This document shows, piece by piece, positions 5,554 through 60,170 of a stretch of 64,000 nt of DNA; positions within the stretch are counted from its first letter, which is position 1; every line of letters starts with the position of its first letter. This DNA is from Naegleria gruberi. Taxonomy: Eukaryota. Under the pieces are notes generated by a model that saw nothing but the letters and a program-made list of their open reading frames with translations, did no database searches and was not told the DNA's origin. Location of the stretch: NCBI GenBank assembly GCA_000004985.1, contig GG738850.1. One strand, 5' to 3'. The position numbers and the translations under genes were made by a program.

Positions 5554-6312
5554 TTACAATGCAGCAGAATATAAATTAATAATTGGTGGTCTAGTCAACT
5601 CAAATCTTCCAAGAATATTTTCAAATCCATATGTAATACTCCATTGAAATTTACCAGATAATTGTTGATTCTTCTTTTCAATAGCAAATGAAATAGCTCT
5701 CTTACATTCCCTATGAATTTCAAAATTATTCCTTCTTCTAATAAAAATCAACCATGTGAAAAAAACCACAGGTGGAATCCACAACACATACATGTAGAAT
5801 AAAATTAATCCCTGACCAGCAGCTGATGCATTGAATGTAGCTCCCAATCTAATCACCAAGAATAGTCCAAATAAGAGGAAAATTACAATGGAAATCAACA
5901 TGGCACAACTGGCATAAAATATTTCAACATCTCCTTCTTTGAGTTGTGTATGAAATTTGTTTAAAATTGTGGAAATTTGTTCGGTGAAGGAGTGATAATC
6001 TTCTTGGGACATTTGGTTGTTTAATTCTTCAGGGTAGGAAGAGGTAAATTGTTTAAAGGAATAATCATATGGAATGGAAATGATGCAATTGGAAATATTC
6101 GAAACTAGATTGGAAGTGTTGGTAATTTCAATCACGTGTTCTACTTCATCATCGTGGTATGATGATGGTTGTTGTTGTTGGTCGGTTGTGGATTCTTCCG
6201 TGTAGAGCATTTTTTTATGAGGATTTTTTATGGAGTTTCGAATAAAATCAAACGTGTGAAATTCGAAAGAGGAATGAATTACATGCTCTATTGTGAACAT
6301 GTTAAAATACAT
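5554..6312 (-). CDS. Hypothetical membrane protein with two predicted TM helices near the C-terminus
   Basis: ORF 5554..6330 on the minus strand. The listed start is TTG; the first in-frame ATG is at 6312-6310 (MYFNMFTIEH...). Hydrophobic stretches are ILISIVIFLLFGLFLVI and VLWIPPVVFFTWLIFI. I recognise no family. The true start may be the downstream Met (MLYTEES...). Confidence 0.4.
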   Translation of the reverse strand: MYFNMFTIEHVIHSSFEFHTFDFIRNSIKNPHKKMLYTEESTTDQQQQPSSYHDDEVEHVIEITNTSNLVSNISNCIISIPYDYSFKQFTSSYPEELNNQMSQEDYHSFTEQISTILNKFHTQLKEGDVEIFYASCAMLISIVIFLLFGLFLVIRLGATFNASAAGQGLILFYMYVLWIPPVVFFTWLIFIRRRNNFEIHRECKRAISFAIEKKNQQLSGKFQWSITYGFENILGRFELTRPPIINLYSAAL

Positions 6313-6330
6313 TAATTTATTGAAAAACAA

Positions 6331-7481
6331 TTAGAAAATGAATGAAATAATCAAACTAATCAAAATAGCCAACATTCCAACGTTATTCGAAACAACTTGA
6401 TATGAAACTCCAGCACTTGTAGAATTAAATGCAGTAAAAGTAGCAAATCCATATGAATCTCCAAACAATGAAACAGAACATCCCTTACAACTATTACCAT
6501 TCAAACTCATCCAATTTCTATATTGAATAGCATCTCCAATAATAGCATGAACTGATTGATCCAAAACTCCTTGATAAGATGAAGCAGCACTTGAGAATTG
6601 AACATAGGTAGCTTTTGGAAGATAGGTTTTAACGTAGGTTGAGTAAACAGTTCCTTCATAGGCACCAACAATCATATCAGGTGAATTGAATTGATTAATG
6701 TCTGTAATGGAAATACTTTGATTTCTGAGTGATCTTAAGAAACCCTATTAATTTGATGAAATTGAAACGTATTGGAATTTTGATATGTGAATATTTGTGA
6801 AAAAAGTTATTGGAATTATAGTCATGAAATTTGTGTTAATAATGAATTGGTTTTTTTGGTGGAATGAACTTACATTGGATCCAGTACCATAATTACATTG
6901 GAAGTGAGCAACTGTAGTTCTTTCAGGAAGAGGTGTAGCCTACAAGTTTCGAATATAAATTTTCACACAATTTCCAATAGAAACTTACATTACTTGTAAT
7001 AATATCACATTCTCCATCATCAACCAACTTTCTCAATGTATTAAAATACCCCAAACTACTTGTATTATACTGAGTAAAAGAGGCAGCATAATTTGTTGAA
7101 TATTTTGCATTAATTTTCTTAATGATATATTGACCAACTGTTCTCTTGATGGTCAACCATGGATCTTGAGTACCTAATTCAAAGCATAATCTGATATTGC
7201 TTCTAGATGCGAAAGGATTGGTGGATGGCCAAACTGGTTTAGAGGTAGAACACTATATGATTCGAATAATTATATGAGAAATGATAATTAGAAAGTAGTA
7301 AACATACAATAGGAACTGGGAAAAGCATCAAGTTGGAATATGTTTGTTGGAAATCATTATCAGAAACAACTTCTTGCACTGCAGCATCAAAAGCTGCTGT
7401 CATTTGGCTGGTGATGACTTGTGCCTTCACGCCAACTGTCAAACACACAATAAACAATAACAGGATAACAATTTGTTTCAT
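6331..7481 (-). CDS. Secreted protein with an N-terminal signal peptide and a C-terminal hydrophobic GPI-anchor-like tail, in four exons. Family unknown.
   Basis: Exons on the minus strand are 7481..7308, 7252..6989, 6939..6874 and 6744..6331 (stop included). Introns are 55, 49 and 129 nt, all GTATGT/GTAAGT...AG and phase 0. The signal peptide is MKQIVILLLFIVCLTVGVKAQ and the C-terminal tail is ...VGMLAILISLIISFIF*. The exon model was built by hand from frame continuity across three separate ORFs. Confidence 0.55.
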
Positions 7482-49262: not shown

Positions 49263-50253
49263 ATGACACAAGGTAAATTATTAAATAATTGTGATTGAGT
49301 ATTTTTAATGATTCTCAGAATTTTCAATTACAAAGTGTAATTTATGTAATCATGTAGTATTGACTGATAGTATTATTGATCACTTGAAATTACTTCATCC
49401 GAATATTCAAATTCATTCAAACCCAATTTCAAATAACAACAACAAACAACCAACCTTATCAAATAATAACAATAACAACACTAACAATTTAAAATCAAAG
49501 CCTTCTTCATCGTCATTACATCACAACAACACCACCACCACTACTAGTACTTGTATAAAACAATCAAACAATAATATTTCTAACATACCGATCAAGAGGA
49601 AAGTGAGGAATCAAGAGGAAGAACATTCTAATGATGATGGAAAATCAAAGATTGGTACATCTTCTAATACTAGTAGTAGTAGTAAGACTCCTATAAACAA
49701 TAATACATCCAATAGTAATAGTAATACTCTAAATTCATCGACCACATCCGAAAAATCAATATCACCAAACACCTTCTCCATTAAAATTACCAACAATGAA
49801 ACTAAATTAATGAGTAAGATTCCTAAAATCACATCTAACAGTACAACTACAGTTCTCAATAATAATAGTACTAATAATGGTAGTGTTGGAAGTAGTAATC
49901 AACTCAAAAGAACTATTTCACAAGTCTCCTCACCAACCACTACTACTACTACAAGTACTCCAAAGAGATTTGTTAAACTTATTGAACCACCATCTCATAT
50001 TCAGAATGAAAGACTTTCAAATAGTCATCATCATCATCATGAAAAGAATGTATTATCACCTAAACCAAATAGCAACAATACACCCTCGCCTTCAAATCTA
50101 GATGTTAGACCAAAGAGTGCAGTTTCAATTCAACATATTGTTAATACTAATATAAATAATATAAGGCCAAGTGATGGTGCTCCCCTCATTCCTAACAATA
50201 ATATTCATAATAATATTAATAATAACATTAACAGTAGTAGTAGCAATAAATAG
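49263..50253 (+). CDS. Asn/Ser/Thr-rich low-complexity protein. The first coding exon is only 10 nt.
   Basis: Exon 1 is 49263..49272 (ATGACACAAG, MTQ plus 1 nt), followed by an 85-nt intron (GTAAAT..CATGTAG). Exon 2 is 49358..50253 (VLTDSIIDHLKLLHPNIQIHSNPISNNNNKQ…). Coding-like P/H/Y-rich sequence continues downstream in shifted frames to about 50808. Confidence 0.4.
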
Positions 50254-50862
50254 TAGTAATAATAAGTAGCAACAATCATAATATTTCAAATTCTACTTCT
50301 AATAGTAGTACAACAACAACAACAACCACATCAATTCTTCCAAGCACTGCTGGTAATAACAATTATGCAAAATCAGCCTTAGTTAATTTGAAGGCTACTG
50401 CTATTCATCCTAAACCAATTCTTCCAAGATCAACTACTACCACATCTCCTCCACCTACTAGTGCTGTTAATACATTGCCTCATCCTTATTCCCCACCTTC
50501 AAGTCCTACTACTTTTATCATCATCATCACCCTAATGGTGGAACAATTTATTCAACTTCTCCCTATCATCCACCACCACCACATCCAATTTATCATCATC
50601 ATCACCATCCACCACCAATAGTACCACTCTATTCACAACCTCATCCAATGCCTCAATCACCACATCACCACCATCCTCCTGGTGTTTATTATGCACCTGT
50701 TTATACTACACCATCTCCTACCTATCCTATTATGACTTCTCCCTATCATCATCCACCACCACCACCTACAACAACCAATCATCATTCTCACCACCATCAA
50801 CAACAGTAGATTCTTTTCATTACTTGTCAATTGTCGTTTTTCTACAGAGTTTACTACAAAAA

Positions 50863-53800
50863 ATGTCTCAACCAAGTCCTGTAAGTGATTGTATAATTTG
50901 AATCAATTGTTGTATTAATGATGATCGGATTCAATAAAGAGAAATCAAGATACAATTTCTAGTTCAATCATTTTGACAATTATTGGAGAAGGAGAATTTA
51001 AAGTAATAATTGATGATCGTTCTTTTTTAAATGAATTTAATCAATCACAACCACAACCACAACAACAACAACAACAATTATCATCATCAATAAATGAAGA
51101 TGAAAAGAAAAAGAAGAGAAAATCATTTTCTCAATCATTTTCAGAATCATTTACTCAAGTTTTACATCAAACTACTTCTGGAATTACAAAAGGATTATCA
51201 ACTTTTACTTTTAAAACGAGACATGTTCAATTGAGAACAAATGAATTATTAATTTATGCTGTTAAAGGTTTGTTTTAATATTTGTTTTTAATAATAATTA
51301 AATATTTTATTACAATGAATTACAATAAAAAAATAGATAATTCCAAAAATAGAAAATTAAAAGCTAACATTTCACTTATCAAGGCAATAGTTAGTAAAGA
51401 TACACTTTACAAAAATTGTATTCGTATTGAAACTCAAGATAAAATTGTTCATATTCAAATAGATTCAGAAGATACAAGACAAAAATGGTTAAAATCAATT
51501 ACAGAACAAACACAAATTCTATCGAAAAGAAAAGAAGAAAATATAATTGCATCACTCTCTTCAAATTCTTTAATTTCATTAGACAATGAATATACTATTA
51601 ATAATATTAATAGTGGTGGTAGTAGTGAACAATTATTTAATAACAAATCATTGAGAGGTTCAATTGTTGATAGAGAACATGAGGAAACAAGTGAAATGAT
51701 TCAAAATTTTATTAATGAACTAAATAATTTGGATCCTAAAAAGTATTTTAATCCTGCATCAAATTTAAGTTCAAATCCTTCATCTTCTAAAAGACGTCAC
51801 AACAAGTTGAAAAGTTTAACTGAAATTTCAGGATTAAATAATGATTCACTTCATGGTATTAAATTTACTAAAAATGATGATTCTAATAATAATAATAGTG
51901 GTAATAATACTAATAATAAGAATAATGGTGAAAATAATGAACAAGATAATGGTATTTTAAAAGATAATGATCAAGATTTAAATAATCATGTTAAAGATCA
52001 ATTATCAATTTTAACAAGTGAATTTTCACATTTGAATAATTTTACATTTATAGGTGGATTAGCCCATTTAACTTTAATTGGTAATAGAATTATGGAAAAG
52101 GCATCTATTCAAGTTAATACTCAATCAATTTTAAACATGTCAGGTGGTTCACAAATATTAAAACAAGGTTACTTATTAAAAGCAGGTCCAAATTCACATC
52201 AACCATGGAAGAAACGTTATTGTGTTTTAACTGAATCATGTGAATTTAGATATATGAGTAAAATTGGTCAATCACCAAAAGGTTTATTTTCATTACAAGG
52301 TACTTGGGCATCACGTATTAATAGTAATGATATTGATGATAATGATGATATTGATATTAACAATGATATTAAGAATAATACTAATAATAATACTATTACA
52401 AATAATTCAAATAATAATAATAATAATACAAGTATAGATTCAGATACAAATCATAATGATGAAAATTTCAATGAACAATTTTTAAATATTCATTCAAATT
52501 CATATCAATTTCAAATTGAAACAAGTGAAAGAATTTATAAATTTCAAGCACCTTCTTATCAATCTTTAAAAAGTTGGTTAAATTCACTTGAACAAGTTGG
52601 TTGTAAAGTTAAAATTGATGAAAATGATGGAATTGTAAAAACAGGTTATTTAATGAAAGAGAGAACAACTAATCATTGGAATAAGAGATTTATAACACTG
52701 ACGGAATCTAATGAATTAAAATATTATGGAAAAAACAAATCAAATCGTTCCTTAAAAGGTACTATTCAACTTGAAGATTCTTATATTACTAAAATTATTG
52801 AAAAATATGAACAACAAAATATTGTAACAAGTACAATTGAATCTTTAACTGATACTATTATGTTAACTAATCATCATACTTTCAATAATAATTCTAATAA
52901 TACTAATAATAATAATAATAATAGTAATAATGGTAATAATAATAATTATATTATGAAATATAAATTTAAAATTCATACACCTGAGAGAAATCACATATTT
53001 GAAGCTGAAAATGAAATGGAACTTGATCATTGGATTCAAATAATTTCCAAATATGGTTCAATTCAAAGAAATGAAAATGATCCAAAACCAATTTTTAAAA
53101 ATCGTCTCGCCAAATACTATCTCAAAACAACAGAACAAGTTATTTTGGAAAGACAAGAAAAGCTACAGGAATACATTGTTAGTGAAGATAGTTTGAGAAG
53201 TAAATTGGAGAGAAATAAGAATAATGCTTCATTTAGATTAAATAATTCAAGTTTTCTTAGTAGTAATAATACTAGTTCAATTAGTATTCATTCAAATAAT
53301 GTTTCAACCAATGCCATGAATAATGGAGGTGGTGATAATAATCAACATCATCAATTATTAACAGTTCAAACAGCAACTGGAAATTATAGAAAACAACGTA
53401 ATAGTAGAGCTTATTCTAAATCTGAAACAAGTTTATTGAATCATCATTATAATCAAACAAAGAGTTTATTGAATTTGAAACCAGGTGAAACACCTCCACC
53501 ACCAACAAGTCCAACATTTTCTCTATTATCATCAATTTCACATAATGATGAACATAATCATTCTAATCATTTAATATCACCTTCATCACCTTCATTGAAT
53601 GTTTCATTGATTGCACATGTTCCAGAGGATGAATTTATTTCAGATGATGAAATTGATGAAAATCTTGATATTCAAGTATTGAAAATTGAACCAATTGAAA
53701 AATACATTCCAAATACTAATAATAATACTAATAATACCACTATCACTACCACTACTACTACTAATAATAATAATAGCAGTGAACAACAAGTGGTTGTTAA

Positions 53801-55505
53801 TACTACTGCTGTTGAATTACAACAACCATCAATTGTTATTGAAAATAGTGATGATGATAAACAATTAATTGTAAATAATGAAAAAGTACCTTTACAATCA
53901 TTAACAGTATACTCACATAATAATATTGGTGTTAGTGATTCATCAGATGAATTCCAAATTATTGTTGAAGATTTAACAATGAATGAACATGAAATTGAAA
54001 CTATTAATAATATTGATAATACTGATAATATGAGTGATAATATTTCAAATAGATCTTTATCTCAACAATATTTAACTAATGATGATGATATGAATGATAT
54101 GAATGATAATCAACCATCTCAACAATATGATTCAACAAGTGAATTATTAGTGAATCAAAAAACTCATCAACATGATTCAATTGATATTCAAATTGAACCA
54201 CCATTAAATGATGAACATTCCAATGAAATGGAAATTGATTATTCCTATAATACATCAAATCCAATTCAAAGTCAAGGATATTATACTAGTTATCAAATAA
54301 TACCCAACTTGAAACCATCTATTGTAATAGATAATGGATCAGGTATATTAAAATCAGGATTTGCTAATCAAGATTTTCCAATTTGTGTTTTTAATAACAT
54401 GATTGGTCGATTGAAACAATATTCAGCAACGAGAGGTGTTGGAATTGGAGGAATGAGTGGAATGGGTGGAATTGGAGATCAAGGTAAAAAATTATATTTT
54501 GGAGATGGAGCTCAATCATTGAGAGGTGTTTTACAATTATCATATCCAGTTGAAAGAGGAATTGTAAAGAATTTTGATGATTTTGAAATGATGTTACAAT
54601 ATACTCAAGATTGTTTAAAATTGGAAACATTTAGTGAAAATCCATTATTAATAACTGAATCAACAATTAATCCAAAACAAAATAGAGAAAGAATTACACA
54701 AATGATGTTTGAAACATTTGATGTACCATATCTATATATGGCTAAATCACCTGTTTTATCTTTATTTGCACATGGTTATACAACTGGTTTAGTTTTAGAT
54801 TCAGGTGATGGTGTTACACATACTGTTCCAATTTATGAAGGTTATTCTTTACCACATGCTGTTCAAAGATTAGAACTTGCAGGTAAAGATTTAACAAATT
54901 ACATGTTAAATTTATTGAATCAATCTGGTCAATCAAAACCATTTCAATCTCAAAATTCTTCATCTCATATTGAAATTGTTAGATGTTTAAAAGAAGATTT
55001 ATCTTTTGTTAAATCATTTAATGATTCACATAATTCATCATCATCAAATACTATTAACAATAATAATTCTTCATCATTACAAGTTAATTATGATTTACCA
55101 GATGGTACAAGTATTAAAGTTGGAGAGGAAAGATTTAAATGTCCAGAATTATTATTTAATCCATCAATTGTTAATGGAGGAAGTGAAATGTTGGGAGTTC
55201 ATGAATTATGTAAAAAAACAATTTATGAATGTGATATTGATTTGAGAAAGACTTTGGCTTCAAATATTTTCCTTTCAGGTGGTTCAACTAAATTTAATGG
55301 ATTTCAATCAAGATTACAAGATGAAATACAAAATTTATTACCTTATTCTAATAAGGTTAAAGTTAAAGGTTCGAAAGATGTTCAATTTTTACCATGGATT
55401 GGTGGTTCAATCATTTCAAAGATTTCACGTTTCCCTTACGATTGTATTAGTAGACAAGAATATGAAGAAACAGGTCCATATTATTGTCATGTTAAATTTA
55501 TGTAA
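50863..55505 (+). CDS. Protein of about 1500 aa with three PH domains, long Asn-rich linkers and a C-terminal actin-fold (actin/Arp-like) domain
   Basis: Exons are 50863..50880 (MSQPSP), 50940..51267 and 51337..55505. Introns are 59 nt (GTAAGT..AATAAAG) and 69 nt (GTTTGT..AAATAG). PH domain 1 is split by intron 2 (GEGEFKVII…LSTFTFKTRHVQLRTNELLIYAVK|…LIKAIVSKDTLYKNCIRIETQDKIVHIQIDSEDTRQKWLKSI). PH 2 is LKQGYLLKAGPNSHQPWKKRYCVLTESCEFRYMSK…SWLNSLEQ. PH 3 is KTGYLMKERTTNHWNKRFITLTESNELKYYGKN…ELDHWIQIISKYG. The C-terminal 390 aa are actin-like: IVIDNGSGILKSGFAN, LDSGDGVTHTVPIYEGYSLPHAVQRLELAGKDLT, IKVGEERFKCPELLFNPS, FLSGGSTKFNGFQSRLQDEI and WIGGSIISKIS…ISRQEYEETGP. Confidence 0.6.
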
Positions 55506-55536
55506 ATAATAAATTCAAATAATAATAAAGTGAATA

Positions 55537-56838
55537 TTATTCCCATTCAGCATTTGTTTCCACTGCCCATTCATCCACAGTTGCTGTTTCACAAGTTATA
55601 ACAGATGGTGCAATCACTGAAATACTTCCTGTTATTACATTCTCTGCAATTTTAAATATATGAATAGAACCATCTGAACATCCAACAAATAATTGACTTC
55701 CATCATTGGACCAAATTAATGATTTTGGATTTTGAGCTTCCTTCTTTCTATTATTGAATGATTTTGAATTATTTTTTCCAATTAATTGATGATGAACTAT
55801 TGTTTTACTCTCCAAATCAATAGTACATAATATTCCATTACTTTGAAGCAATGATAACCAATATCTATTAGGTGAATAACACATATCTATACATGTAACA
55901 GGTTTAGTTTCTTTTTTTCCTTCTTCTGAATTTCCATAATAATCATATAAATTAGTATCATAACTATTTTTCAAACAACAATCATATAAATGTTTAAATT
56001 CACAAGGTTGTGTTGTTACTATAACTTCAATTAATTCAACCTTATTCAATGAACCAGCCAATGAAAAGAAACTTCCATCTGGTGTTAATAAAAATTTCTC
56101 ACCATCAAATTTTCCTTCCAAATTTGCTTGTGAAATTAATTTTGATTGATTTTCAACTTGCCACAATTTCATACAACCATCACTATTACCTAATGAAACA
56201 AATTGATAATTATCTGAAATTGGAGTTTCATTTTCACTAATTATACTATTACCATTTTCATCAAGAATAGCTTGAGTTTGACCTGCCCAATTTTTAATAA
56301 ATCTAACCATTTTAACAATATCTGAATGTGAATCTTTAGAATTTGAATTCAACTTTTTCAAACATTGACCACCACTAACACTCCACAATCTCATTGTATT
56401 ATCTCTTGATGATGATATAATTAGAGAACCATCTAATGAACAATCAATTGATAAAACACTATCTAAATGTCCATTTAATACTTTTTTACATTCAAATGTT
56501 TGCCAATTCCAAATTCTAATACTACCATCATTATAACTTGATATTATTGATTCACCACATATTGTTAGACATATATCTGTTAATTTAATTTCACTACTTT
56601 TAGACCAATTCGTTAATTGTCCTCTCATGACAAGTAATGTTTTTAAAGAATTATTATTATTATCATCAGTGGTAGTAGTAGTAGATGTTTGTATAATATC
56701 CCATAGCGTTATAATAGGATGATTTTTACTTGCTGTAACAAGTACATTATCATGTTTAGGAATAACATGAATAAAATCGATGGAGGAATTTTCAAGCCTT
56801 GTCAATGCTCTATGAAATTCAATACCAGTAGATGACAT
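55537..56838 (-). CDS. WD40-repeat protein
   Basis: 433-aa ORF with ATG at 56838. WD blades include SYNDGSIRIWNWQTFECKKVLNGHLDSVLSIDCSLDGSLIISSSRDNTMRLWSV and GCSDGSIHIFKI. Confidence 0.6.
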   Translation of the reverse strand: MSSTGIEFHRALTRLENSSIDFIHVIPKHDNVLVTASKNHPIITLWDIIQTSTTTTTDDNNNNSLKTLLVMRGQLTNWSKSSEIKLTDICLTICGESIISSYNDGSIRIWNWQTFECKKVLNGHLDSVLSIDCSLDGSLIISSSRDNTMRLWSVSGGQCLKKLNSNSKDSHSDIVKMVRFIKNWAGQTQAILDENGNSIISENETPISDNYQFVSLGNSDGCMKLWQVENQSKLISQANLEGKFDGEKFLLTPDGSFFSLAGSLNKVELIEVIVTTQPCEFKHLYDCCLKNSYDTNLYDYYGNSEEGKKETKPVTCIDMCYSPNRYWLSLLQSNGILCTIDLESKTIVHHQLIGKNNSKSFNNRKKEAQNPKSLIWSNDGSQLFVGCSDGSIHIFKIAENVITGSISVIAPSVITCETATVDEWAVETNAEWE

Positions 56839-58086: not shown

Positions 58087-60170
58087 ATGTTAGGTGAGGA
58101 ATCTGGAGAAGTCTTCGGAAAGGATCTTAGAGAGAGGATTGATGAAGAACGTAAAATATATCAAGATCCTTCAATAATGATACCAACAATTGTAAAATTT
58201 CTAGTCGATTTCTTACGGGAAGCTCCTCCTAGACAGGGAATATTTAGAGAAGTTGGAAGTGTATTAAATGTTTCGAATTATCGTTCGAAGGTTAATGAAT
58301 ATGGTACAAGTAAGTTTTAAAGCCTTTAACGATTTAAAATTGAATGATAAAAAGAACCTGTTGATTATCGATCATTATTTAAACATGAATTGACACCAAA
58401 TGATGCTTCATCACTTTTAAAATCATATTTTAGATATTTACCTGAACCACTTGTAACATTTAATGGTTATGACAGACTTGTTGTTATTGGACGTATGTAT
58501 TTTGAATTGATTTAAATATTTTTAATTTACAAATATAGAAACTGAATTGGATGATAAAAATAGAATTTCCAAATTAAAAACAATGGTAGAAGGATTACCA
58601 ACAGTTAATTATGAAACATTAAAATATTTCATAGATTTATTATTTGGAATATCAACAAGAGGAGTATATAATATGGATGCAAATAATTTAGCAGTTTGTT
58701 TAAATCCATCAATTTGTTTTGCTAAAGATAAAGAATCATCAGAATCATTTTTAAATTTAAATTATGTCATTACATCACTATCTTCAATGATTAAGAACTA
58801 TCCACAAATATTTGATCAAAATATTAAGAATGATCAACAACAAGAACCAATAAGTGAACCTAAAGTAATTGTTGAAAAGAAAGTAACACCACCACCTTCA
58901 CCTAAACTTGTAAAACCACAAACTCAACAAACTCAACATATTACTAATAGAACACCTTCTAAATTAATAGATAAAGGAACATCAACACCAAAATATAAAA
59001 GTTTTGATGAAGATTTTCAAGATACAATATTACAAGAATTAGATAGATTAGATTCAAAAATAGATTTCAGAGAAACTGAATTGGAATTAGAAAGAGATTT
59101 AAGAAAGAGTGGTAGAATGGATGATTATGGTTATAAAACATTTTTAGATACAAAAAAACTTAATACAAGTGAAATGTTTAAAGAATTAGAACAAGCTGAA
59201 TCAACTGAAACATTAGGTGAAGATGATGATTTACTTTTAAAGAGAAGAAATTTTCATTCTAATTTATCAATTATTTTACCAGAGAATGAACAAGATTCAT
59301 TTCCTGCACATCCATTACTAGCTTCAACTGCATCACCAATTTCTGTTTCTGCAACAATACCTCAAAATGATCAAGAAACAAAACGATTAATGGAATTAAT
59401 TAGACAATTACAAAATGAAAATTCACAATTAAGAAAGAATCAAACTGAAATGTTCAACACTATTGAAAAATTACAAAATGATGGTGGACAAGCAAAACTA
59501 GGTGATGAAATGGAAAGAGTTAAAGCAATTGCAAATCATGAAATTCAACAAATTAGAAAATATATTTATAATGTTGAAGGTTTGTTAAATTTATTGTCAT
59601 TATGGTTAATTATTTAACATTTATTAATTCTATTATAAAATAGAACAAACAATTGAGGAATTAAAACACATGTGGACTAAAATGGATCATTTAGAAGATG
59701 GAACTAAACAAGCCTTGTTAACATCAGATCCAGGTCATTTTGGAAGACAAATTTCACATTTAAAAGATGAAATTAAAAATATGAAACTTGAAATTCGAGA
59801 TATATATGGCGGATTTGGTGAAATTAATGAAAGAATGAAAAGTATTGAAATAGATTATAGAGAAATTAATTCAAGAATTGATGATGTATTAAAAGAAGAA
59901 CGTTTTATTAAGGCTAGACATGATTATGATCTTGAACATTTAAAACGACTAGTTGAAGAATCAAATTCAAGAATTAGACAAATGGGATTAGAAATTACAA
60001 CAATACGATCAAGAGTTGATTCAAAATATTCGAATTTATCTTCACCAACAATGACTGCAAGTGCTTCAAGTAAATTAGCATCGCCTCAATTTACAACCAC
60101 AGCAAATATGGAACATAGAACAACAAGTCATATTGCTACAAATTTACCAATTTCAAAATATAAATATTAA
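58087..60170 (+). CDS. RhoGAP-domain protein with a C-terminal coiled-coil region
   Basis: Four exons: 58087..58309, 58355..58492, 58539..59579 and 59644..60170. Introns are 45, 46 and 64 nt (GTAAGT/GTATGT/GTTTGT donors), all phase 1. RhoGAP motifs are IPTIVKFLVDFLREAPPRQGIFREVG, LLKSYFRYLPEPLVTF and LLFGISTRGVYNMDANNLAVCLNPSI. The C-terminus is heptad-rich (…LQNENSQLRKNQTEMFNTIEKLQ…, …IKNMKLEIRDIYG…). Confidence 0.65.

Follow-up and report, generated by a model that had tools for sequence, protein, structure and literature searches.

In a 64,000-nucleotide stretch of Naegleria gruberi DNA (contig GG738850.1, assembly GCA_000004985.1; hereafter the window), a gene on the + strand at 50863-55505 combines three PH domains with a C-terminal actin-fold domain. 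The PH and actin parts very probably form one fused protein of 1504 amino acids (aa), which we call PH-actin. As a package, we favor, with a probability of roughly 50 to 55%, the reading that PH-actin is a module resembling the actin-related proteins (Arps), probably nonpolymerizing, tethered to phosphoinositide membranes. No published description of a PH-actin architecture was found in the literature searched, and public databases list its orthologs under no other names than "hypothetical" or "PH domain-containing" protein.

The gene has three exons, and the only stop codon of its spliced coding sequence (4515 nt) is the terminal one, at 55503-55505. The surrounding DNA is AT-rich (~25% GC). 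The gene is laid out as follows:

50863-50880, + strand: exon 1, six codons (MSQPSP) with the ATG at 50863, a placement based on the sequence and the N. fowleri model.
50881-50939, + strand: intron 1, 59 nt, GTAAGT...AG, ending at 50939 with the sole acceptor that gives back the downstream frame.
50940-51267, + strand: exon 2, the first half of PH1, with a conserved TIIGEGEFKV strand, a basic EKKKKRKS loop, and FKTRHVQL.
51268-51336, + strand: intron 2, 69 nt, phase 1, GTTTGT...TAG, interrupting PH1.
51337-55505, + strand: exon 3, the remainder of the protein, contained in a 1407-aa open reading frame (ORF) at 51282-55505.

Intron 2 must be spliced out, as it contains an in-frame TAA at 51276. 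Its removal is also supported by the PH1 match, which needs the joining of exons 2 and 3 to exceed the Pfam threshold (33.7 bits versus 25.1), as expected of an intron-split domain. Exon 1 and intron 1 are putative, placed by reading the sequence and by their counterpart in N. fowleri, where the gene starts with a 4-codon first exon. Intron 2 has its own counterpart there, a phase-1 intron at the identical PH1 codon. The choice of 50939 as the acceptor of intron 1 follows from the in-frame TGA at 50922 and from the restoration of the frame downstream. Three donor-like GTTAGT sites in exon 3 were also considered as introns, two in conserved coding sequence and one in the linker, and none was supported.

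The 1407 codons of the ORF at 51282-55505 hold together the C-terminal half of PH1, PH2, PH3, the linker, and the actin domain. The remaining two frames over the same interval contain 94 and 287 stops, and the longest stop-free run in 2000 shuffled versions of the interval was 131 codons. An earlier note on this DNA, made from the letters alone, had proposed one gene with three exons encoding about 1500 aa; its coordinates, exon count, and length were right, and the structure is echoed in N. fowleri and in a metagenome contig. No stop or frameshift lies between the PH and actin parts, and the latter scores as an actin fold with 341.8 bits, two points that the note had singled out for checking.

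The N. fowleri annotation has one protein of 1488 aa (FDP41_000397) with the same domain order, and an unbroken ORF of 1313 codons runs from the second half of PH1 to the C terminus of the actin domain. A Joint Genome Institute (JGI) metagenome contig (L002) holds an unbroken 1089-codon ORF of matching architecture, with the PH1 exon upstream; the frame break and gap at the corresponding point of PH1 are read as a putative equivalent of intron 2. Other annotations separate the two parts. For N. gruberi, the public model NAEGRDRAFT_35386 is limited to the actin part, 425 aa from an internal methionine onward:

54228-54230, + strand: Met1080, the start of NAEGRDRAFT_35386 (the database protein P0006 is 100% identical to the final 425 aa of PH-actin).

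In N. lovaniensis, the locus (L004, 3396-7674; PYSW02000014.1) is spread over at least four reading frames, and its two large ORFs, in different frames and overlapping by 80 nt, are annotated as C9374_001992 (PH) and C9374_001993 (actin).

These two annotations, together with a linker that is hardly conserved, might suggest two genes, one for a PH protein and one for a stand-alone actin-like protein, with the frame between them untranslated as one chain. We consider this highly improbable. The parts are separated by neither a stop nor an intergenic gap, and N. fowleri is annotated as one protein. The linker amounts to some 340 unconserved codons at 26% GC, yet the frame stays open through it in N. 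gruberi, N. fowleri, and contig L002, to be set against the shuffle maximum of 131 codons; without translation, this would be difficult to account for. Between N. fowleri and N. lovaniensis, the ratio of nonsynonymous to synonymous substitution rates (dN/dS) was ~0.37 for the linker and 0.13 for the actin domain; together with codon positions in the linker, this lends weak support, as the linker dS is saturated. As the N. lovaniensis frame also jumps inside conserved PH-module coding sequence, its breaks point to assembly indels or to recent decay or pseudogenization rather than to a gene boundary.

The N-terminal part of the protein consists of the following elements:

50970-51530, + strand: PH1, residues ~17-180, with intron 2 inside (Pfam PH, E 5.5e-8, 33.7 bits on the spliced protein).
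51981-52154, + strand: helical segment upstream of PH2, residues 331-388, with 38-57% pairwise identity among three orthologs.
52155-52598, + strand: PH2, residues 389-536, with an Asn-rich loop insert at 443-500.
52632-53060, + strand: PH3, residues 548-690, with an Asn-rich loop insert at 600-655.
53073-53225, + strand: helix downstream of PH3, residues 695-745 (...LERQEKLQEYIV.E..L..KL..NK), with 51-69% pairwise identity and 18 invariant columns.
53226-54245, + strand: low-complexity linker, residues 746-1085 (~340 residues), with 14-26% identity among orthologs and variable length.

All three PH domains pass the gathering score of PF00169, PH1 after splicing, and a Pfam PH match extends in two stretches across PH2 and PH3 in exon 3 (E 4.2e-23, 82.3 bits). 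The earlier note's three PH domains, the first of them split by an intron, are thus borne out. Its Asn-rich linkers between the domains were partly misplaced: the runs exist, but PH2 and PH3 themselves contain two of them as loop insertions (residues 443-500 and 600-655, respectively).

Phosphoinositide-binding PH domains typically carry a K-Xn-K-X-R basic signature, and specific lipid binding is lacking in many PH domains. In PH2, the pattern GYL.KAGP....WKKRYCVLTE is invariant in the four orthologs and gives K397-X9-K407-X-R409 (with K408 between), i.e., at the sequence level the K-Xn-(K/R)-X-R beta1-beta2 signature of phosphoinositide binders. PH1 has a K-x-R in its putative beta2 strand, retained in the three orthologs that cover the region, besides the poly-Lys EKKKKRKS loop. 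The basic motif of PH3 is present in one ortholog only and is otherwise unconserved. In an AlphaFold2 model of the N. lovaniensis N-terminal module (predicted local distance difference test [pLDDT] of 50.5 overall), PH1 was not resolved; PH2 and PH3 adopted a PH-type beta-sandwich with a C-terminal helix at a pLDDT of 70-88, and helices appeared at the segments matching residues 331-388 (low confidence) and 695-745. A Foldseek search with the PH2-PH3 model matched centaurin-alpha1, the tandem PH domains of FARP1/2, and the PH domains of Akt, Btk, and Grp1 (E 6.5e-10 to 1e-4). Helix 695-745 had no match in the Pfam scan. A Pro patch in the linker, PGETPPPPTSP (53481-53513), stands out in N. gruberi and the metagenome ortholog, is looser in Willaertia, and is missing from N. 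fowleri at the aligned point.

The C-terminal part comprises these features, with actin residues numbered after the rabbit reference (100% match to P0141 over 375 residues):

54246-55502, + strand: pre-actin motif and actin-fold domain, residues 1086-1504 (Pfam match at 54315-55499).
54423-54491, + strand: DNase I-binding loop (D-loop) region, with a Gly/Met-rich insertion (SATRGVGIGGMSGMGGIGDQGKK), predicted disordered (pLDDT below 50).
54747-54749, + strand: Ser1253, the counterpart of catalytic Gln137 (AIQAV in actin, AKSPV here; HMMER and MAFFT alignments agree).
55014-55076, + strand: Ser/Asn-rich insertion in subdomain 4 (pLDDT below 50).

The domain matches Pfam Actin (PF00022) over model positions 5-409 of 410 with E 5.8e-102 and 341.8 bits (cut-off, 27), and it has the four-subdomain organization of the actin fold. 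About 25 residues upstream of it, a Y.(V/T/M)SN(P/A) motif is conserved among the four orthologs. The phosphate-1 (DNGSG), phosphate-2 (DSGDG), and adenosine (SGG) motifs are all present; 16-18 of the 24 nucleotide-site residues are the same as in actin, and DSGDGVTH including H161, K213/E214, and G301/G302 are retained. Q137 is the glutamine that positions the hydrolytic water; its loss slows hydrolysis and is by itself no bar to polymerization. At this position, the three Naegleria species have S and the metagenome ortholog has P, and the H73 position is occupied by R or K in all PH-actin members.

Further changes make the surfaces for longitudinal filament contacts noncanonical, for which the sets of interface residues are approximations from published F-actin structures. 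Only 2-3 of 12 D-loop residues are kept, and the D-loop insert measures approximately 3 residues in the metagenome ortholog, 10 in N. lovaniensis, 13 in N. gruberi, and 24 in N. fowleri. The barbed-face set is better kept, with 15-20 of 32 residues identical. K336Q, T351R, C374F, and F375M are common to all PH-actin members, M355 is replaced by D or N, and M305 by K or Q; T351R and M355D/N are charged substitutions in the hydrophobic cleft that accepts the D-loop of a neighbor, and the C-terminal CF becomes FM. The domain thus departs from conventional actin in its level of identity, in Gln137 and His73, in the fixed length of the D-loop, and in the integrity of the hydrophobic cleft.

All the actin landmark motifs that the earlier note had quoted occur in the translation. 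Its "complete" actin domain is so in its coverage of the Pfam model but not in its residues, given that Q137, H73, and a canonical D-loop are lost. The note had also offered, among other roles, a pseudo-actin regulator or a capper, and the Q137S and H73R changes, the D-loop insert, and the cleft changes favor these options over a normal polymerizing actin.

Conventional actin shares ~47% identity with the actin domain; the values are 46-51% across the actins sampled, 46-48% for canonical actins among database representatives, and 41-47% for rabbit alpha-actin. The conventional actin of Naegleria and rabbit actin share 77% identity. Divergent actins give 34-42%, including 40-42% for a named centractin (P0216), and Arp3 gives 32%. 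In a PDB sequence search, the best 60 matches were all conventional actin (~351 bits, ~47% identity), with no Arp among them. A rough neighbor-joining (NJ) tree placed the four PH-actins in a clade of their own with 100% bootstrap, outside the conventional actins, one Arp1, and other fused actins. The Arp comparison thus comprises one centractin (Arp1) and Arp3, with Arp2 covered through its absence from the top 60 PDB matches. On this basis, the PH-actin domain appears to be no ortholog of the Arps compared, and its nearest relative appears to be conventional actin.

PH-actins form a small family that is so far confined to the Naegleria/Willaertia branch of Heterolobosea. The 150 best HMMER matches of the metagenome ortholog against 1.84 billion cluster representatives contained the module or this type of actin only in Naegleria, Willaertia, and environmental relatives. 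No additional PH-actin loci came from scanning metagenome contigs for the pattern. A word-indexed protein search returned five matches for the full protein and one for a cleaned N-terminal profile; it missed known orthologs and is therefore uninformative on distribution. The Willaertia magna protein (P0003, ABK040_004969) shares the N-terminal module and the linker, followed by the first ~40 and the last 17 residues of the actin domain; the lack of ~330 actin residues in this model likely reflects a mispredicted intron.

A separate observation concerns a 7.1-kb contig from the European Nucleotide Archive (ENA; L005, ERZ4903137 k141_3586466). It carries bacterial-type genes, namely, for a pyruvate phosphate dikinase (PPDK) regulator, a phosphoenolpyruvate (PEP)-utilizing enzyme, a beta-eliminating lyase, and a tetratricopeptide repeat (TPR) protein, and then, from ~6250, the 3' 760 nt of a PH-actin gene (6254-7010). 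This fragment has 79% nucleotide identity to positions 54725-55509 of the window, and the contig represents either a chimeric assembly or the bacterial capture of a gene fragment.

The gene structure at the level of DNA, the domains, their conservation, and the residue changes are shown directly; from them we infer lipid binding, the ATP state, nonpolymerization, and a coupling role. PH-actin would have two working ends, the three-PH module and the actin fold, connected by a disordered tether of ~340 residues. The PH module, chiefly PH2, would recruit the protein to phosphoinositide-rich membranes, a function suggested by the conservation of PH2, the best conserved part, and by its K-Xn-K-X-R signature. 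The actin domain probably binds ATP, as both phosphate loops, H161, and the adenine-pocket glycines are kept, and its hydrolysis would be slow or absent given the loss of the catalytic Q137. The length-variable D-loop, T351R, M355D/N, and the loss of Q137 suggest Arp-like behavior without actin-like polymerization. A stable, ATP-bound actin mimic of this kind may dock on conventional actin, at the end or side of filaments, or on actin-binding proteins, and such docking would couple the cortical actin network to the membrane.

Several points weigh against this proposal. The PH signature is a feature of sequence only, PH3 lacks the motif, and PH1 was modeled poorly. Loss of Q137 alone does not prevent polymerization, and the N-terminal tether is compatible with copolymerization, the actin N terminus being on the filament surface. 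Lastly, the JGI N. gruberi and the N. lovaniensis annotations keep the actin part separate, and an internal promoter yielding an actin-only product is possible.

The surface location of the N terminus, which is general background for actin filaments, is also central to another reading, in which PH-actin is a membrane-tethered but polymerization-competent actin that enters ordinary filaments as an occasional subunit, its PH module stapling them to phosphoinositide membranes, much as filactin enters actin structures. The fusion is at the filament-surface side, the domain has kept its nucleotide loops, its conservation is highest in subdomain 3 and at the barbed-face residues, and conventional actin is the closest relative; moreover, filactin, an N-terminally extended actin, occurs in actin rods (PMC5225641). 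However, an identity to actin of just 47%, the loss of Q137 and H73, and a D-loop that differs in length from species to species and is predicted to be disordered speak against it, as do T351R and M355D/N in the cleft that receives the D-loop and the change of the C-terminal CF to FM. We regard this reading as unlikely. The asymmetry of conservation between the barbed face (15-20/32) and the D-loop (2-3/12) would fit a membrane-localized nucleation seed or pointed-end cap, which would attach through its better-kept barbed face to the pointed face of actin monomers or filaments and block further addition through its degenerate D-loop face, as in Arp2/3 and Arp11, and ATP-binding residues kept alongside a lost hydrolysis residue make an Arp-like profile. 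Yet T351R and M355D/N could equally spoil the docking of an incoming D-loop, and a lone actin-fold domain is a poor nucleus, for which helix 695-745 is a candidate means of dimerization. That PH-actin is such a seed or cap is decidedly unlikely on present evidence, and there is an equally slim chance that it acts as a self-contained, phosphoinositide-recruited actin mimic, seeding or capping filaments at the membrane independently of the Arp2/3 complex and formins.

A tethered, probably nonpolymerizing Arp-like module can be compared with several known systems. Like the canonical Arps (Arp2, Arp3, Arp1, and Arp11), PH-actin is a noncanonical mimic that has an actin fold with its nucleotide loops kept and a divergent D-loop and pointed face; Arp2 shows a similar divergence from actin, with about 47% identity. 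Canonical Arps work in multisubunit complexes, whereas PH-actin has its own targeting module. That module resembles centaurin-alpha1/ADAP1, FARP1/2, and the PH domains of Akt, Btk, and Grp1 in the fold of PH2-PH3, for which they are the best matches, and in the basic signature of PH2. These proteins differ in sharing only 11-24% identity with the PH-actin model (pLDDT 50.5), and none has an actin domain.

Like filactin (Fia) of Dictyostelium discoideum, PH-actin has a long N-terminal nonactin extension and a C-terminal actin domain in one amoeba polypeptide, is restricted to its lineage, and is poorly understood in function. The extension of filactin is Ist1-like; that of PH-actin is a PH module, and no Ist1 family is among the Pfam matches of its N-terminal 1100 residues. 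The actin domain of filactin is described as "extremely homologous to conventional actin" (PMC2441452, PMC5225641), in contrast with that of PH-actin, which by comparison with this published description stands apart in its 47% identity and its loss of Q137 and H73. As Amoebozoa and Discoba are different supergroups, the two fusions are almost certainly independent.

Our searches also brought up CRAL_TRIO-actin proteins of amphioxus, shark, bichir, and teleosts (P0160, P0166, P0187, P0197, and P0240; 1400-1900 aa; e.g., Branchiostoma XP_078668912.1 and Danionella TRY87736.1), listed as "uncharacterized." Like PH-actin, they start with a lipid-binding domain and end with an actin domain, with a long spacer in between; unlike it, they carry a Sec14-like fold and actin domains 45-60% identical to actin. 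The actin domains of P0160, P0166, and P0187 formed a separate clade in the NJ tree with 100% bootstrap, and these proteins represent a second case, of independent origin, in which a lipid-binding domain is fused to actin; no published description of them was found. A 1071-aa protein (P0005, L003 103-3318, Logan SRR24412590) places a very divergent actin-like domain (~25% identity to the Naegleria domain, 29% to actin) after a weak PH domain, and its architecture is apparently unrelated to that of PH-actin. In P0004 (ENA, 1610 aa), P0218, and P0153, C-terminal or internal actin domains are fused to leucine-rich repeats (LRR), reverse transcriptase, or Sec23/VWA; some of these fusions are probably gene-model artifacts.

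The earlier note's premise that actins and Arps are free-standing proteins was too general, as shown by filactin, the CRAL_TRIO-actins, LRR-actin, and the other PH plus actin-like protein. Its view that the PH-actin architecture lies outside described families holds insofar as we found no description, and has to be tempered by actin-domain fusions being less rare than it assumed.

Regarding the neighborhood in the window, a convergent ORF at 55537-56838 (- strand) encodes a 433-aa WD40-repeat protein and ends 32 nt past the PH-actin stop. In N. fowleri and N. lovaniensis, an RCC1-repeat gene takes the downstream place, so that downstream synteny with N. gruberi is not kept. On the upstream side, His/Pro-rich low-complexity ORFs at 50388-50809 (+ strand) show an extreme C-over-G skew (GC skew ~-0.7) and end 54 nt before the PH-actin ATG, presumably as the last part of the upstream gene. 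A Pfam scan of the upstream ORF at 49360-50253 was without match. Further downstream, an ORF with a partial RhoGAP domain at 58526-59614 (+ strand) represents another nearby cytoskeleton-regulator gene.

These results correct the N. gruberi annotation, in which a 425-aa "actin" is the tail of a 1504-aa protein. The main inventory paper of Naegleria actins counts 78 actins and Arps and leaves PH domains unmentioned; published counts of Naegleria "actins" probably contain at least one multidomain protein. If the proposed mechanism is true, PH-actin would join membrane to actin directly, a connection that animals, fungi, and Dictyostelium lack, and would offer a clean system for the study of a tethered actin fold. 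Naegleria has no interphase microtubules and hence crawls and feeds by actin alone. N. fowleri is a lethal human pathogen, and with its ortholog PH-actin would possibly be a parasite-specific target. Should the seed or cap mimic prove true instead, it would constitute a third, lineage-specific route from lipid signal to actin assembly in Naegleria, including N. fowleri, and the chordate CRAL_TRIO-actins would hint that a lipid-binding domain plus an actin mimic is a recurrent design.

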